A DNA stretch of 64,000 nucleotides, from the sequence record NC_054916.1, one strand, 5' to 3'. This DNA is from Escherichia phage vB_EcoM-G28. Below, piece by piece: positions 32,504 to 36,587 of this stretch. Positions within the stretch are counted from its first letter, which is position 1. Every line of letters begins with the position of its first letter. The notes beneath the pieces are model-generated. The model was not told where the DNA came from, made no database searches, and saw nothing but the letters and a program-made list of their open reading frames with translations. The position numbers and the translations under genes were made by a program.

Positions 32504-33339
32504 TAGAATGCTCCTTGAAAAATATTATCACCACAAGTAGGTCTATTATACAAATACTCTATGCCGCCGGGTTTAATATAGTTCCATGTCTGAAACGGAT
32601 GTGTCTGATATGGATGATATGGATTATAAGGATTAAATCCAGGAGTTCTCCAGGTAGTGTTCCAAGGAAAAGAATCGTTTTTAACCATCTTCTCAATTAC
32701 ATCTTTTATAGCTTTTTCACTATCAAAACTTTCTTTATTTTCCTTTGGCGAAAAAAGCTTATTTTCTACATCATTCCATGTATAAACTCGCTGAGCAGTT
32801 TTTGGAATATTGTCACGCTCTCCTCGAGCCATCCAATAAACAGGAACATTTAATATTTCACTCGCGTGATCGCAGTGGTGAGCGAGATCGTCAATATAAC
32901 AAATTACGTTATATTTCTCTTTTGCCTTTTTGAACAACTCTTCTTTTGAAGAATCATGACCACACATCAATACTTCTGAGAAGGCACCAGGAAAAAGAGC
33001 ATTCAAATTAAATTGACGATTCAGCAGAGCGTCAATAGAATCACCCAGTGCTGTAACAGCTACAAAATTATAATCTTCTTTTAATTTGTTAATTACACAC
33101 AGGGCATCTTTATATGGAGACAAATAGCGAATAAAATCTGAACGATTATACTTTTCGATTAATTTAACACCAAGTTCTTCATCGCAATTAAAGAGCTTAC
33201 CAGGAGAAATAAATTTTTCGTCCTGAATCATTTTTAAAATATGTTCCAACGGAAGATTATATTTTTGGGCAAAATAAGGAAGGCCTGATTGCCAGCTTAA
33301 ACATACTCCATCAATATCAGTTAAAATAGTAGGCTTCAT
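32503..33339 (-). CDS. HAD-superfamily hydrolase-like protein (T4 30.2 position)
   Basis: 278 aa; N-terminal ILTDIDGV matches HAD motif I (DxDG). Confidence 0.55.
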   Translation of the reverse strand: MKPTILTDIDGVCLSWQSGLPYFAQKYNLPLEHILKMIQDEKFISPGKLFNCDEELGVKLIEKYNRSDFIRYLSPYKDALCVINKLKEDYNFVAVTALGDSIDALLNRQFNLNALFPGAFSEVLMCGHDSSKEELFKKAKEKYNVICYIDDLAHHCDHASEILNVPVYWMARGERDNIPKTAQRVYTWNDVENKLFSPKENKESFDSEKAIKDVIEKMVKNDSFPWNTTWRTPGFNPYNPYHPYQTHPFQTWNYIKPGGIEYLYNRPTCGDNIFQGAF

Positions 33340-33800
33340 AGAGAGTCTCTTAATAGGTTTAACACATCAATAAATTCAGCTTCGGTTAGTATTGTATCAT
33401 CTTTTGTTAGACCACTAGCCATGCTGTGCTTCAAAACTTTTCCTTTCGAGGCTTGTAATGCATCGCGAAAGCCCTTGTTTTGAATCGCTGCTTCAAAATA
33501 TGCATTTGTGTATAATTCTTTCCACGCTGGGGAGTATCTTGAAAATGGAACTCCAAGCCAGAAGAGGGTTCCGCGGTCCTGAGCTCTTGCATAAGACCTT
33601 CCAGCTTGTTGGGCGGCAAGCCCGGATAACCCAAATATACGACGTTGTTGTTCAACATTTTTCACCTTGCATCCTTGGAGGAATCCTTCAAGACCTCCAA
33701 ATTGAATACCATCCATAACGAAAGGCCAATGGGCGAAATTACTTAATGCACATGATGGCCACCTAAAATTACTTCTAATCTCTAACTCAGACATTTTCAA
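33336..33800 (-). CDS. NADAR/YbiA-like (DUF1768) protein (T4 30.3 position)
   Basis: 154 aa; LSNFAHWPFVMDGIQFGGLEGFLQGCKV matches the NADAR signature as I remember it. Confidence 0.6.
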   Translation of the reverse strand: MKMSELEIRSNFRWPSCALSNFAHWPFVMDGIQFGGLEGFLQGCKVKNVEQQRRIFGLSGLAAQQAGRSYARAQDRGTLFWLGVPFSRYSPAWKELYTNAYFEAAIQNKGFRDALQASKGKVLKHSMASGLTKDDTILTEAEFIDVLNLLRDSL

Positions 33801-35280: not shown

Positions 35281-35367
35281 TTTATTCTCCTTTGTTTGTG
35301 TAAGATAATACTATCACAAAGGAACCATACTGTAAACAACTTTGTGCAATCTTTGGAAAATAAAAAA

Positions 35368-35385
35368 GGACTCCCGAAGGAGTCC
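35368..35385 (-). terminator. Stem-loop downstream of the basic small ORF
   Basis: ggactcc-cgaa-ggagtcc. Confidence 0.5.
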
Positions 35386-35390
35386 TCAAC

Positions 35391-35567
35391 TTATGCTTTC
35401 TGCTTACCAAAACGAGAAGCATCATCTCGAAGAACCGCACGTGCTCGGCGCATGATCTTCTCAACAGTTTGATTGATACGAGAGTTCGACCCACGCTTGT
35501 AGCCAGCGCGTTTAGAATCACCAACTTTCTTTTCAACTGCTTTCTTTGCTTTAACTTGTTTTGCCAT
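35391..35567 (-). CDS. Small basic protein, about 58 aa from the MAKQVKAKK start (ORF track extends to 35609)
   Basis: Lys/Arg-rich ORF; the internal ATG has a better-placed ribosome-binding site than the track start. Confidence 0.45.
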   Translation of the reverse strand: MAKQVKAKKAVEKKVGDSKRAGYKRGSNSRINQTVEKIMRRARAVLRDDASRFGKQKA

Positions 35568-35855
35568 TATAAATTCTCTTTTAAATGAAAATGCAGGACT
35601 TATTGGCATTGCCTGCGCAAGCCCTCAAGGGGAACATAGGTTTTGAATATTTACCGACAGGATAACCATAAACCTCGTCATCATACCACCAAGACTTACA
35701 CAGATAACACTTTTCTGACGCATGATAGTAACATTCAAGAGGTACACCATAAAACTGCCGGGGTCTTAAAACTATAATGATTCGCAAATCAATAATCAGA
35801 CAGTTCGATGGCTCCTCGATTTTAGCTCACACTAAGGCAGTGAATCTCCAATAAA

Positions 35856-36104
35856 TTACTTCAATGTTACCACAAAGTGACGAACTGCTTTTCGTGCAGC
35901 AGAAGCCAGAGGCTTAGCATATTTAAGTTCATCTTTTTCCTGAAGCTCAGCAGCTAATGCAGTTTGAGCAGGATTCAGATGTTTGAAATAACGCAGGATT
36001 TCAAGAGCTTCGGCTTCAACATCAATAGATGCGCCATAGTTTTCGTGACCATTATTCCATGCGTTTCGTTGCAGTTCAAGAGCGTGTTGTAATTGTTTAA
36101 TCAT
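35856..36104 (-). CDS. rIII: rIII lysis-inhibition accessory protein
   Basis: 82 aa; position next to gene 31; size as T4 rIII. Confidence 0.8.
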   Translation of the reverse strand: MIKQLQHALELQRNAWNNGHENYGASIDVEAEALEILRYFKHLNPAQTALAAELQEKDELKYAKPLASAARKAVRHFVVTLK

Positions 36105-36251: not shown

Positions 36252-36587
36252 TCACTTATAAAGACATGGAATAGCTTTATAATGACATGTTACGAATTTT
36301 TGTTTAATTTCTTTTGGCTGCTTAAGACCCAGAGCTACAAAAGGATGCGGAACGTTTCGAATTTGACCAACTGGCAGAGAAGTCAAATCACCAACTTCGC
36401 AGAAACCTTCAGGAACATCAGGACCAACAGAGTGAACTACACACAGTTCAGGAACTTCACCTTGAACACGTTTACCGATAATAAGTCCTGATTCTGTAAC
36501 TTCTTCATCACCGGCTTGCGCAGGTTCAGAAACTAAAATAACATATTCACCGACAGCACGAATTGGTAGCTGTTGTACTTCAGACAT
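36252..36587 (-). CDS. 31: Co-chaperonin gp31 (GroES analogue)
   Basis: 111 aa; size and position as T4 gp31. Confidence 0.9.

Follow-up and report, generated by a model that had tools for sequence, protein, structure and literature searches.

A mosaic array of structured RNA modules, one of them ToxI-like, between rIII and 30.9 in T4-type phages

The rIII–30.9 intergenic region of this T2/T4/T6-type phage, 288 bases at positions 35568-35855 of the window (the whole 64-kb stretch of DNA that was analyzed), is very probably non-coding, structured and related to ToxI. ToxI is a 34-38-nt pseudoknot RNA that neutralizes the endoribonuclease ToxN in type III toxin-antitoxin (abortive infection) systems. 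Read on the minus strand, which carries both flanking genes, the interval is a chain of six independently folding modules, arranged as D, F, E, B, C and SL, and these belong to a mosaic of RNA modules that we traced across ~50 related phage loci. By profile search, alignment and covariation, module D is shown to be a single, slightly diverged ToxI copy, and module B to be a member of a family of phage H-type pseudoknots that have TenpI's architecture and sequence signature, the window copy of B itself not being detectably similar. These comparisons suggest that T4-type phages carry RNA decoys against bacterial suicide-defense systems. An array of structured modules acting as antitoxin-like RNA decoys is, in our judgment, the best explanation overall, to which we would give about an even chance.

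Locus, neighboring genes and reading frame

The interval is bounded by the stop codon of rIII (35856-35858) and by the ATG of gene 30.9 (35567, minus strand). The first of these genes (35856..36104, minus strand) encodes 82 aa, its ORF being 100% identical to annotated rIII of T6 and T4. Gene 30.9, which lies downstream of the module array in a synteny found in ~40 loci, occupies 35391..35582 on the minus strand including its ribosome-binding site AAGAGAA, with a stop codon at 35391-35393. Its frame, taken from the ORF list, starts with MAKQ as conserved in the T4 annotation and encodes a very basic 58-aa protein that matches PHROG 1427, a function-unknown family (E=3.5e-31). A late-promoter core, TATAAATA, is found upstream of rIII (36251-36244, minus strand), a promoter scan detected no sigma-70-like promoter inside the interval, and a terminator scan detected no terminator-like site between rIII and 30.9. 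The first such site comes after 30.9 and is an intrinsic terminator (GAGGACUCCUUCGGGAGUCCUU followed by a U run; 35366..35387, minus strand) with a 9-bp stem, five GC pairs and a U tail, which is likely the 3' end of array-carrying transcripts. Since it directly follows the rIII stop codon, the array presumably forms the 3' portion of the rIII transcript; transcription of the interval from the minus strand is probable, and would make it both the tail of the rIII mRNA and the leader of 30.9. The late-promoter core upstream of rIII, with no intervening terminator, makes expression of the array during infection plausible.

The interval is matched by 772 phage records, by 578 of them over at least 80% of its length. 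In relatives, the gap between rIII and 30.9 ranges from 120 to 422 nt, T4-type phages having kept, lost and reshuffled modules at this locus, with helices kept through compensatory changes. T4 is devoid of E, others carry a 135-nt module, A, that is seen in relatives, and the order of the modules is shuffled between phages. Each module occurs once in the 64-kb window and, in each phage, at the array locus only. In two phages (L043/L044) the array resides in a tRNA cluster, away from rIII and 30.9, and in another (L088) modules resembling D, A and B are preceded by three tRNA genes, again away from both genes. All covariation counts given below come from related, recombining phages and do not represent independent events. 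A tRNA considered in the insert of fPS-2 was rejected, ARAGORN having found none.

The initial annotation had recognized no convincing gene here, and we found that an intact gene is absent from this position in ~50 related loci. The ORF that it had reported (35581..35787), TTG-initiated and with a 68-aa product rich in Cys, Tyr and Trp, is on the minus strand and is the only one of at least 60 aa. This ORF overlaps modules F, E, B, C and SL, and we consider it spurious since its frame is not conserved. Because of indels and stops, the homologous frame in close relatives is open for only 1, 6, 10, 16, 20, 21, 37, 58, 60, 62 or 68 aa (20 aa in T4, 37 in L005, 10 in L007, 1 in L016 and 6 in L020), and in T6 a frameshift alters the C-terminal third. 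Searches of Pfam and PHROG with the 68-aa product returned no match, and the suggestion of a decayed gene is thus not supported, the frame being broken at differing points in near-identical relatives. A false gene is sometimes called at the locus by genome annotators, and one GenBank record (FL44) annotates the 68-aa ORF.

The locally atypical composition that had been proposed is not borne out, the GC content of the interval (0.389) falling at the 78th percentile of all 288-nt windows in the 64 kb (mean 0.362, sd 0.038). The two GC-rich islands on which this idea was based do exist, once each, CCGGGGTC at 35758 and GCCTGCGCAAGCCC at 35611, and are not a sign of atypical composition: the former is the 3' strand of helix P2 in module F and the latter corresponds to the module C hairpin together with the 5' arm of stem-loop SL. 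A structured RNA, one of the three origins originally offered, agrees with what we found, the whole interval being built of modules whose helices are kept by compensatory changes. Horizontal acquisition holds for a 34-nt module that shares ancestry with plasmid toxI repeats, not for the interval as a whole, whose overall composition is ordinary. The similarity to ToxI, which had been missed, is the key to the region.

Folding of the single sequence gave z-scores of -1.42 for the minus strand and -0.24 for the plus strand, values that are uninformative because the interval is a chain of small pseudoknots. A scan with Rfam 15 covariance models yielded no match to the interval, even at E<=10, and none to the intervals of relatives. 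Since the genuine ToxI array of pECA1039 went likewise unrecognized, this silence is uninformative on type III antitoxins. Sub-threshold matches to Atu_C8 and Phe_leader are due to the terminator hairpin that follows 30.9.

Module D, a single ToxI-like unit

Module D (UGGAGAUUCACUGCCUUAGUGUGAGCUAAAAUCG; 35817..35850, minus strand) is a single ToxI-like, or pseudo-ToxI, pseudoknot of 34 nt, delimited by HMM, alignment and covariation. An HMM made only of bacterial ToxI sequences (15 units) has a single significant match in the 64-kb window, at 35849-35820 (E=0.0042; next best E=1.6), and D agrees with a Pantoea ToxI repeat at 30 of 34 positions, a value reached by none of 2000 shuffles (shuffle maximum 27). 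Stem a is formed by G35849-C35836 and G35848-C35837, which in the window are its only two G-C pairs, plus an A·G, and stem b joins 35843-35840 to 35830-35827, where U-A, C-G, A-U and C-G all pair. Across phage and bacterial units, both stems are 90% paired, with three covarying pairs. The conserved nucleotides making tertiary contacts in ToxI are G5, A6, U12, G21 and U22, named together with two G-C pairs in PMC8860590; all five nucleotides are present at the aligned positions in the window, as are both G-C pairs. The loop of D reads CC-UUA-GUG and contains a single adenine, leaving incomplete the A19-A20 pair that makes A-minor contacts with stem 1; 10 of 10 aligned bacterial ToxI units have AAG where D has one A, and the shortened loop is also seen in T4, L015, L042 and L088. 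At its 3' end, D has an AAAAU motif; the bases after it, UCGAGGAG, look like the opening ~8 nt of another repeat. Junctions between ToxI units have an A-rich ToxN cleavage motif (AA^AU): the 3' junction of D (GCUAAAAUCG) contains AAAU, and the 5' side (GUAAUUUAUUGG) is without it. There is thus no tandem array in the window, which has one D unit plus ~8 nt, and a search of IMG/VR for naturally occurring tandem expansions of D found none. A likeness of D to the type I-F CRISPR repeat, with which it shares UUCACUGCC ... GCUAA, was rejected because the CUGCC/GGCAG hairpin of that repeat is not preserved and the ToxI stems are.

The bacterial relatives of D were reached by several routes. The ToxI repeat used for comparison is 100% identical to that of pECA1039. 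When the gaps of relatives were searched blindly with BLAST in plasmid sequences (7.3 Gb) and E. coli genomes (28 Gb), toxI arrays were the only matches; the window interval, searched by BLAST in plasmids, returned nothing. The Pantoea-type similarity, too short and gapped for BLAST, was found only via toxN-anchored retrieval. This ToxI subtype, characterized by GGAGAGUCACUGCCGUUAAGUGUGA (Pantoea agglomerans pBH6cv2_D, E. coli pRHB30-C10_4, Idiomarina abyssalis and Lachnospiraceae), has 30 of 34 positions in common with D, both stems included, as well as G5, A6, U12, G21 and U22 and an A-rich junction followed by UCG-GAG. In bacteria, it forms tandem units of 38 nt in 2.9-5.8 copies, with their own promoter and followed by a terminator and toxN, whereas the window has one 34-nt unit plus ~8 nt, no toxN, a loop 2 nt shorter and no 5' cleavage motif. 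Likewise, bacterial ToxI arrays have 1.9-5.6 repeats, in contrast to the single copy of D. With a pattern derived from D, tandem 38-nt arrays that precede a terminator and a toxN homolog were located in Idiomarina, Lachnospiraceae and Cellulosilyticum, and in Photobacterium a tandem 38-nt array without a toxN match. A search of 5,426 complete E. coli genomes at the megablast level did not turn up the pRHB30-type toxIN, the closest bacterial subtype to D.

In other phage lineages, each D is closest to a different bacterial ToxI subtype: the pECA1039 type in L028, the pGRT1/pPA21A type in JS98-like phages, the Enterobacter type in L074 and L076, and repeat 1 of pRHB30 in L042, assignments that are approximate because the best scores were tied with, or within one position of, the runner-up. 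ToxIN(Ec) represents a different ToxI subtype from D.

Module B and the other structured modules

Module B (35635..35684, minus strand) is an H-type pseudoknot of the TenpI kind, as indicated by covariation and by similarity to TenpI at the level of the family. TenpI is the RNA antitoxin of TenpIN systems, which are also of type III. Stem 1 pairs 35679-35673 with 35661-35656 (GAC(G)AGG/CCUGUC, with a bulged G), stem 2 pairs GGUU (35667-35664) with AACC (35642-35639), and an A-rich tract, GGUAAAUAUUCAAAA, lies between the stems. Stem 1 is 90.6% paired, with compensatory changes in four of its six pairs, stem 2 shows them in four of seven, and the covariation score of B is 0.378 vs. 0.139 for shuffles (0/500). 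TenpI is described as having a stem 1, an adenine-rich stretch and a stem 2 that form an H-type pseudoknot (PMC12283969), which is the layout of B, with compensatory changes in both stems and an A-rich tract in between. An HMM and a CM of bacterial TenpI, the tenpI repeats having been reached via WP_011988580 on a Yersinia plasmid, match module B in other phage loci, namely the copies in L027, L029, L022 and L088, and in the opposite direction, tenpI repeats are the only matches of the phage-B HMM in 220 kb of bacterial DNA. The TenpI of Yersinia p_153kb, Klebsiella, E. coli pC40_Col/pTX313-2, Enterobacter and Citrobacter shares with B the H-type fold, a bulged 6-bp stem 1, a loop of 11-14 nt containing the 5' strand of stem 2, CGU(U/A)AAA, the A-rich tract and the 3' strand of stem 2, and GAUGUGG...AUCCCCACGUAAAA is common to TenpI and relatives of module B. 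In the window's own B, stem 1 has covaried (GACGAGG/CCUGUC), the tract is less A-rich than in TenpI and primary similarity to TenpI is not significant: neither the TenpI HMM nor the CM matches this copy, which is no more identical to TenpI than expected by chance (127/500 shuffles). It is also present as a single copy and without a TenpN homolog, TenpI loci having ~2 tandem repeats followed by a terminator and tenpN.

Module F (35735..35819, minus strand) is a three-helix element of 85 nt, supported by pairing and covariation in 14 distinct sequences. Its helices are P1, UCGAGG/CCUCUUGA; P2, CCAU/AUGG and AACUGUC/GGCAGUU; and P3, a hairpin UAUUGAUU-UGCG-AAUCAUUA. In these 14 sequences, whose diversity is low and from which the structure scored was itself derived, the 25 proposed pairs are 98.5% paired, with five changed on both sides, compared to 30-55% in slid controls. 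F contains a GAGGAG string and the GC island GACCCCGG, and in the window it carries a CCAU/AUGG variant of CCGU/ACGG. Module E (35685..35729, minus strand) is a stem-loop with an outer stem ACUAUCA/UGGUGGU, internal loops UGCG and GUGUAAGUCU, and an inner hairpin CAGA-AAAGUGUUA-UCUG. The T2/T6-type allele has E, T4 does not, and the alignment of E reveals covariation between phage groups, with three pairs of the outer stem and two of the inner hairpin changed on both sides. In L022, L030 and L042, module E lies within a terminator-like stem just before 30.9.

Module C (35618..35635, minus strand), defined by a phage HMM, is a small conserved hairpin, GUUCCCCUUGAGGGCUUG, with a CCC/GGG stem flanked by GU(A/U) and CUUG. 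This HMM finds C at the locus in ~36 loci and once in the window, and covariation is weak, with variants (CCUC/GAGG, CCC-UAU-GGG) that keep the stem. No bacterial counterpart of F, E or C was found in the bacterial DNA searched, and none was found for module A, a 20-mer of which had no match in 596 Gb of GTDB genomes. The last element, SL (35583..35616, minus strand), is a stem-loop, GCAGG-CAAUGCCAAUAAGU-CCUGC, followed by AUUUUCAUUU. Its stem covaries, GCAGG/CCUGC being replaced by GAACUGG/CCAGUUC in L019 and L034 with the loop CAAUGCCAAUAAG kept. SL was not called by the consensus terminator scan; it may weakly terminate or attenuate transcription, or be a hairpin in the leader of 30.9.

Antitoxin decoys and competing explanations

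A tblastn search of the window (E<=1) revealed no ToxN or TenpN homolog, and no ToxN homolog was found in T4-like phages. D thus fits the definition of a phage pseudo-ToxI, that is, a ToxI-like sequence in a phage intergenic region without a cognate toxin. By analogy with the pseudo-ToxI of ΦTE, from which we infer their function, D and B are most likely orphan antitoxin mimics. With host transcription shut off upon infection, the host's own antitoxin RNA, being labile, would decay and release ToxN or TenpN. The phage transcript would then supply look-alike pseudoknots to be bound by the nuclease, and perhaps trimmed at the flanking AAAAU, the toxin would be re-inhibited or titrated, and infection would therefore not be aborted. 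Experiments have demonstrated this mechanism for the pseudo-ToxI of ΦTE. In the present phages such a counter-defense would be multivalent, with different modules, and different D subtypes across phages, each aimed at a different toxin variant. That the array acts as an anti-toxin decoy in nature we put at slightly under even.

In ΦTE, an intergenic locus contains 1.5 pseudo-ToxI repeats, which suppress ToxN when expanded, and ΦTE-F shows that toxI can be captured by phages through recombination (PMC3475682). Wild-type ΦTE with its 1.5 repeats is still aborted, and a single pseudo-ToxI repeat gave no rescue in a toxicity assay (PMC3475682). Our pattern search recovered this pseudo-ToxI as a positive control (L095), beside a tRNA-like 3' half. 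It resembles D in being ToxI-like, in a lytic phage, intergenic, without toxN and in ~1-1.5 copies. In contrast to D, it is found in an rv5-like rather than a T4-like phage, is of the pPA21A-type subtype and stands alone, whereas D is the first unit of a six-module array and has a shortened, single-A loop; function and expansion have been demonstrated for ΦTE, and D is known from its sequence.

The decoy reading must also accommodate what is known of toxIN(Ec). Borne on a plasmid, it strongly protects against T2, T4 and T6, and T4 overcomes chromosomal toxIN only by means of the protein TifA (PMC9391042). Since T2, T4 and T6 are sensitive to toxIN(Ec), D does not neutralize that ToxN subtype, and TifA already accounts for the measured resistance of T4 to chromosomal ToxIN(Ec). 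T4 has further protein inhibitors of toxin-antitoxin defenses, Dmd acting against RnlA/LsoA and AdfA against DarT, in addition to TifA against ToxN (PMC9391042, PMC10853763). These proteins and the array occur in the same phage group and would follow the same logic, that of a substitute antitoxin supplied by the phage, except that Dmd, TifA and AdfA are encoded elsewhere in the genome and the array is a candidate RNA solution. The concept of a single phage copy of a host immune RNA repeat serving as a decoy has reportedly been described for another immune system by Camara-Wilpert et al. in 2023, as RNA anti-CRISPRs consisting of solitary CRISPR repeat units in phages.

A bolder proposal, which we consider tentative, is that the rIII–30.9 spacer is a multivalent RNA counter-defense island, one transcript bearing a shuffled collection of orphan decoys, each for a different RNA-regulated abortive-infection toxin. 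Its ToxI-like units would serve against several ToxN subtypes and its TenpI-like units against TenpN, and, in what is an equally speculative part of the proposal, F, E, C and A would act against defenses whose RNA parts have yet to be discovered. Movement of the cassettes between phages and into tRNA clusters is, as a third part, possible though doubtful.

Two other explanations for the modules deserve to be weighed against decoys, each of which we consider improbable. The modules could be evolutionary debris, either antitoxin-like sequences left by recombination with toxIN/tenpIN plasmids or the remains of an expansion that past selection favored and that then collapsed, and would now survive as non-functional single copies at an intergenic site that tolerates them. 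This would fit the single copy of D and the loss of one of the two conserved adenines from its loop, the abortion of T2, T4 and T6 by ToxIN(Ec), the presence/absence polymorphism of the modules (T4 without E, others with A, gaps of 120 to 422 nt) and the precedent of toxI capture by ΦTE-F. However, compensatory changes have preserved the helices of D, B, E and F across phage genera in which rIII is only 70-90% identical, hundreds of genomes have held on to the modules at this one locus, and different lineages hold different ToxI subtypes with the conserved core nucleotides intact. In addition, T-even genomes are tightly packed, and neutral DNA of such length would be unusual, which we count against debris. 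Alternatively, and at similarly long odds, the structures would serve phage gene expression, their likeness to ToxI and TenpI being incidental or ancestral. The roles envisaged, to which we assign the same low probability, are protection of the rIII mRNA at its 3' end, sites of processing (by RegB at GGAG, for example, or by RNase E/G), and an attenuator or translational operator for 30.9. The position of the array between rIII and 30.9 is in keeping with this, as are the GGAG motifs in D and F and the presence, just before the ribosome-binding site of 30.9, of SL with its U-rich tail or, in L022, L030 and L042, of E inside a terminator-like stem, an arrangement that resembles the terminator setting the antitoxin:toxin ratio in type III loci. 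So is the finding that RIII modulates activation of RegB through S1 (PMC9409239). Yet the array lies away from both genes in L043/L044 and L088, the shuffled order of the modules is hard to reconcile with a fixed leader mechanism, and cis-regulation leaves unexplained why D tracks several bacterial ToxI subtypes.

Far less probable still, to the point that we give it almost no weight, is a small Cys-rich protein, made from the 68-aa TTG ORF or, in another version, from an upstream non-canonical codon after GAGGAG. The ORF does exist, it is annotated in FL44, and the GAGGAG is a strong Shine-Dalgarno-like sequence lying 12-27 nt upstream of in-frame CUG, AUU and UUG codons. Against this, the frame is interrupted at different places in T4, L005, L007, L016 and L020 and shifted in T6, Pfam and PHROG families are absent, and sequence changes track RNA pairing, not codon positions.

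No phages have been studied more closely than T4, T2 and T6, and ToxIN acting against T4 currently serves as a model of abortive infection. Our literature search found no report of ToxI-like or TenpI-like RNAs in T4, T2 and T6 genomes. Antitoxin RNA mimicry so far rests on a laboratory escape route in one Pectobacterium phage, and if the decoys work, hundreds of Tevenvirinae genomes would show it to be a widespread strategy that is maintained in nature. Working decoys would also explain why a tightly packed genome keeps an "empty" spacer of 120-420 nt, would offer a handle on specificity between ToxI/TenpI subtypes and toxins, and would make modules F, E, C and A leads to undiscovered RNA-controlled defenses. 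If the island exists as proposed and its cassettes are mobile, these could be used as probes for new RNA-controlled immune systems. In practical terms, Rfam is without a model that recognizes ToxI, and a false gene is at times annotated at the locus. Even if the decoys fail, the locus would still be a clear record of gene flow between defense plasmids and virulent phages.

The rIII–30.9 spacer and its modules

On the minus strand, genes around the interval run in the order cd; 31.2, 31.1 and 31 (36252..36587); rIII (35856..36104); 30.9 (35391..35567, 58 aa, start MAKQ); and 30.8 onward, and the interval at 35568–35855 is therefore the 288-nt intergenic spacer between rIII and 30.9. The window derives from a T-even phage, and the interval, which is matched by 772 phage records, shares 99.7% identity with its best match T4_ev151, an evolved T4, and 97% with T2 and T6. 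A comparison of the T4 (244 nt), T2, T6 and window (288 nt) and fPS-2 (398 nt) versions reveals spacers with near-identical flanks and a replaceable middle. The T4 record OZ209023 is only 81% identical to the window's spacer because it is missing one module, E. The window's allele at this locus is of T2/T6 type, suggesting a T-even background that is recombinant or non-reference.

We retrieved ~50 T4-type phage loci via rIII and 30.9 and extracted their spacers, which are assembled from a small set of recognizable modules whose order varies among phages. In the window, the modules following rIII, all on the minus strand, are D (35850–35817), F (35819–35735), E (35729–35685), B (35684–35635), C (35635–35618) and the stem-loop SL (35616–35583), after which comes the 30.9 ribosome-binding site. 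Each is single-copy in the 64-kb window. The initial annotation had offered a structured RNA as one option, and this is the one that our analysis bears out, since the modules contain helices kept by compensatory changes (D, B, F and E, with a covarying stem in SL), although the phage sequences behind these counts are related and recombining, and the covariations are therefore not independent events. [quoted passage not shown]

The composition of the interval, by contrast with what had been proposed, is unremarkable, with a GC content of 0.389 vs. 0.362 ± 0.038 for all windows of the same size (78th percentile). The two GC-rich strings noticed at the outset do exist and are helix arms, GACCCCGG lying within helix P2 of F, and GGGCUUGCGCAGGC corresponding to the C hairpin and the 5' arm of SL. 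A local GC peak at 33450–33700 (0.46–0.51 in 150-nt windows), within a 154-aa minus-strand ORF (33336..33800), exceeds every value inside the interval.

Two annotation matters touch the same locus. Several GenBank records (T6, FL44 and fPS-2) give 30.9 as 72 aa, from an upstream ATG (35609) that falls within SL; we favor the 58-aa MAKQ start at 35567, which is backed by the T4 annotation and by conservation in distant relatives. In OL362041.1 (phage vB_Eco_OMNI12), a "glycogen branching enzyme" is annotated at 131086–131483 across the homologous spacer, a 398-nt variant, and is almost certainly an annotation artefact.

Module D and ToxI

Several lines of evidence bear on the likeness of D to ToxI. 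The 36-nt ToxI repeat taken as the reference has 100% matches in pECA1039 and in numerous small plasmids of E. coli and Salmonella, with an annotated ToxN/AbiQ toxin downstream. In blind BLAST searches, one relative's spacer was run against all plasmids and eight joined spacers, 2.2 kb in total, were run against E. coli genomes (28 Gb); the hits were toxI arrays only, in both cases via module D. An HMM built exclusively from 15 bacterial units, gathered from repeats upstream of plasmid toxN homologs, has a single significant match on the two strands of the window, at 35849–35820 (E = 0.0042; runner-up, E = 1.6), E-values being rough for short models of this kind, for ToxI as for TenpI, which rest on small reference sets (15 and 13 units, respectively). 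Moreover, 30 of 34 positions are identical between the window's D and a Pantoea agglomerans repeat, a value equaled by none of 2000 shuffles of D (21.4 ± 2.1 matches, maximum 27). A search with a D-derived pattern found tandem 38-nt arrays followed by a terminator, adjoined by a toxN homolog (tblastn) in Idiomarina, Cellulosilyticum and three Lachnospiraceae genomes, while toxN gave no tblastn match beside the Photobacterium array. As a positive control, pattern search recovered the pseudo-ToxI locus of Pectobacterium phage ΦTE.

The window's D keeps the two ToxI pseudoknot stems intact. Across 10 phage and 10 bacterial units, these stems are 90% paired and include three covarying pairs (shuffles, 0/500; slid controls, ≤56%). 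Residues G5, A6, U12, G21 and U22 and two G–C pairs, highlighted in the E. coli ToxIN structure (PMC8860590), are all present, and the loop has one A in place of the otherwise invariant A19–A20. In other phage lineages, D most resembles other bacterial subtypes: it is nearest to the pECA1039 type in L028, to the pGRT1/pPA21A type in the JS98 group, to the Enterobacter type in L074 and L076, and to pRHB30 repeat 1 in L042, assignments that are approximate because the best scores are tied or at most one position above the runner-up. Neither chance nor one ancient capture readily accounts for this matched diversity of D and ToxI subtypes.

Modules B, F, E, C, SL and A

For TenpI, the RNA antitoxin of TenpIN, we located tenpN on the Yersinia plasmid p_153kb via an accession from PMC12283969 and added seven further enterobacterial tenpIN loci with their repeats. 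A TenpI unit reads, for example, AGAUGUGGUGGAAGGAUGUUCCCCACGUAAAAAAAAGAAGCAUCC, and module B of the phage locus L027 reads UGAUGUGGACGUUGUUGGUUAUCCCCACGUAAAACAUCCGAAACCAAC. A bacterial-only TenpI HMM matches B in L029 (E = 5e-4) and in L027, L028, L032 and L033 (E about 0.01), and a bacterial-only covariance model run on 88 kb of phage loci gives 18 matches at E < 10, ~13 of them to B. Conversely, a phage-only B HMM run against 220 kb of bacterial DNA matches tenpI repeats exclusively. These matches in both directions connect B, as a family, with TenpI. The phage copies of B give good support to an H-type pseudoknot, with compensatory changes in four of six pairs of stem 1 (90.6% paired) and four of seven pairs of stem 2, and a covariation score of 0.378 vs. 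0.139 ± 0.022 in shuffles (0/500). In the window's own B, stem 1 is covaried and the tract is less rich in A; neither TenpI model detects this copy, and it is no more identical to TenpI than expected by chance. Its link to TenpI is transitive, via the homologous phage copies, and is complemented by a common architecture.

Module F consists of three helices (25 pairs, 98.5% paired), with five pairs changed on both sides, including the window's CCAU/AUGG replacing CCGU/ACGG. E pairs into an outer stem plus an inner hairpin, each of which shows compensatory changes from one phage group to another; for F and E, the structures were derived from the same sequences used for the pair counts. C and SL are small hairpins, the loop of SL being kept while its stem covaries. 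No bacterial counterparts of F, E, C or SL were found in the plasmids, E. coli genomes and 220 kb of bacterial DNA searched.

Many relatives carry, where the window has E, a further structured RNA of ~135 nt, module A (CGGCAAGUGCAUGC...GCUAACGGUGUGCAACAGAUAAGAG; fPS-2, L004:1328–1462), present also in L014, L015, L017, L021, L023, L025–L033, L039, L074, L075 and L081 and missing from the window. RNAalifold gives it 40 pairs, 13 with compensatory changes. A is matched neither by Rfam nor, in BLAST searches, by plasmids or E. coli genomes, and 596 Gb of GTDB genomes do not contain its invariant 20-mer.

Possible function and tRNA-associated arrays

The best-supported reading is that the array would work by antitoxin mimicry, as does pseudo-ToxI in ΦTE, where 1.5 pseudo-ToxI repeats in an intergenic locus are expanded in escape mutants (PMC3475682). 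By this analogy a decoy role is possible, and we put it forward tentatively, for the evidence against mimicry is substantial. D is single-copy and is missing one conserved adenine, and no natural D expansions were found in IMG/VR. T2, T4 and T6 are still aborted by plasmid-borne ToxIN(Ec), and T4 depends on a protein, TifA (PMC9391042). A search of complete E. coli genomes did not turn up the ToxI subtype closest to D. Type III pairs reportedly have flanks and cleavage preferences specific to their subtype (PMC8860590), and failure against a pECA1039-type toxin is therefore no test of D's cognate subtype. There is no ToxN homolog in the window or in any T4-like phage in GenBank. A late-promoter core lies upstream of rIII and terminator-like sites occur only inside and after 30.9, and the array is therefore expected, from these sequence signals, to be co-transcribed with rIII. 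In the literature, our coverage of which was incomplete, T-even phages were nowhere described as carrying sequences like ToxI or TenpI.

Other readings give the spacer a different role or none. It might encode a small protein, and the 68-aa TTG ORF (35581..35787) singled out by the initial annotation is indeed there but is not a gene. Neither Pfam nor PHROG contains a match to it, and in close relatives the homologous frame is open for 1, 6, 10, 16, 20 (T4), 21, 37, 58, 60, 62 or 68 codons, cut short by indels and stops. The same spurious ORF is annotated in the FL44 record. The modules might instead be neutral debris; a spacer of 120–422 nt is retained in nearly all loci having both genes, even when rIII identity falls to 70%. 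A third reading is cis-regulation of rIII or 30.9: E is in some phages a terminator-like hairpin preceding 30.9. A stretch spanning the end of 30.9 and its terminator (35352–35435, minus strand) matches Atu_C8, a Rhizobiales sRNA in Rfam, below threshold (31.4 bits vs. a gathering score of 50, E = 4e-4), apparently through nothing more than the terminator hairpin and its U tail.

Related arrays occur at tRNA loci. In the IMG/VR contigs L043 and L044 (about 1790–2140), a T4-type D-F-B-C array lies inside a tRNA gene cluster, carries the ribosome-binding site and ATG of 30.9, fused to the final 28 rIII codons, and has a direct repeat (TTTATTGGAGATT) on either side; it looks like a transposed or circle-integrated cassette copy. 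On JBOFFJ010000164.1, a 1,245-bp phage-like contig whose binning as a Phocaeicola MAG is probably wrong, three tRNA genes are followed on the minus strand (377–125) by a D-like ToxI unit with a loop shortened as in the window's D, a segment similar to the 3' half of A, and a pseudoknot like that of B/TenpI, which suggests that arrays beside tRNA genes extend beyond known Tevenvirinae. In ΦTE (L095:2949–3040), the published 1.5 pseudo-ToxI repeats match the 36-nt pPA21A-type ToxI unit exactly over its first 35 nt and continue straight into an apparent tRNA 3' half (GGUCCGAGGUUCGAACCCGUCCAGUUCCACCA). Together, these three cases link antitoxin-like RNAs with tRNA loci.
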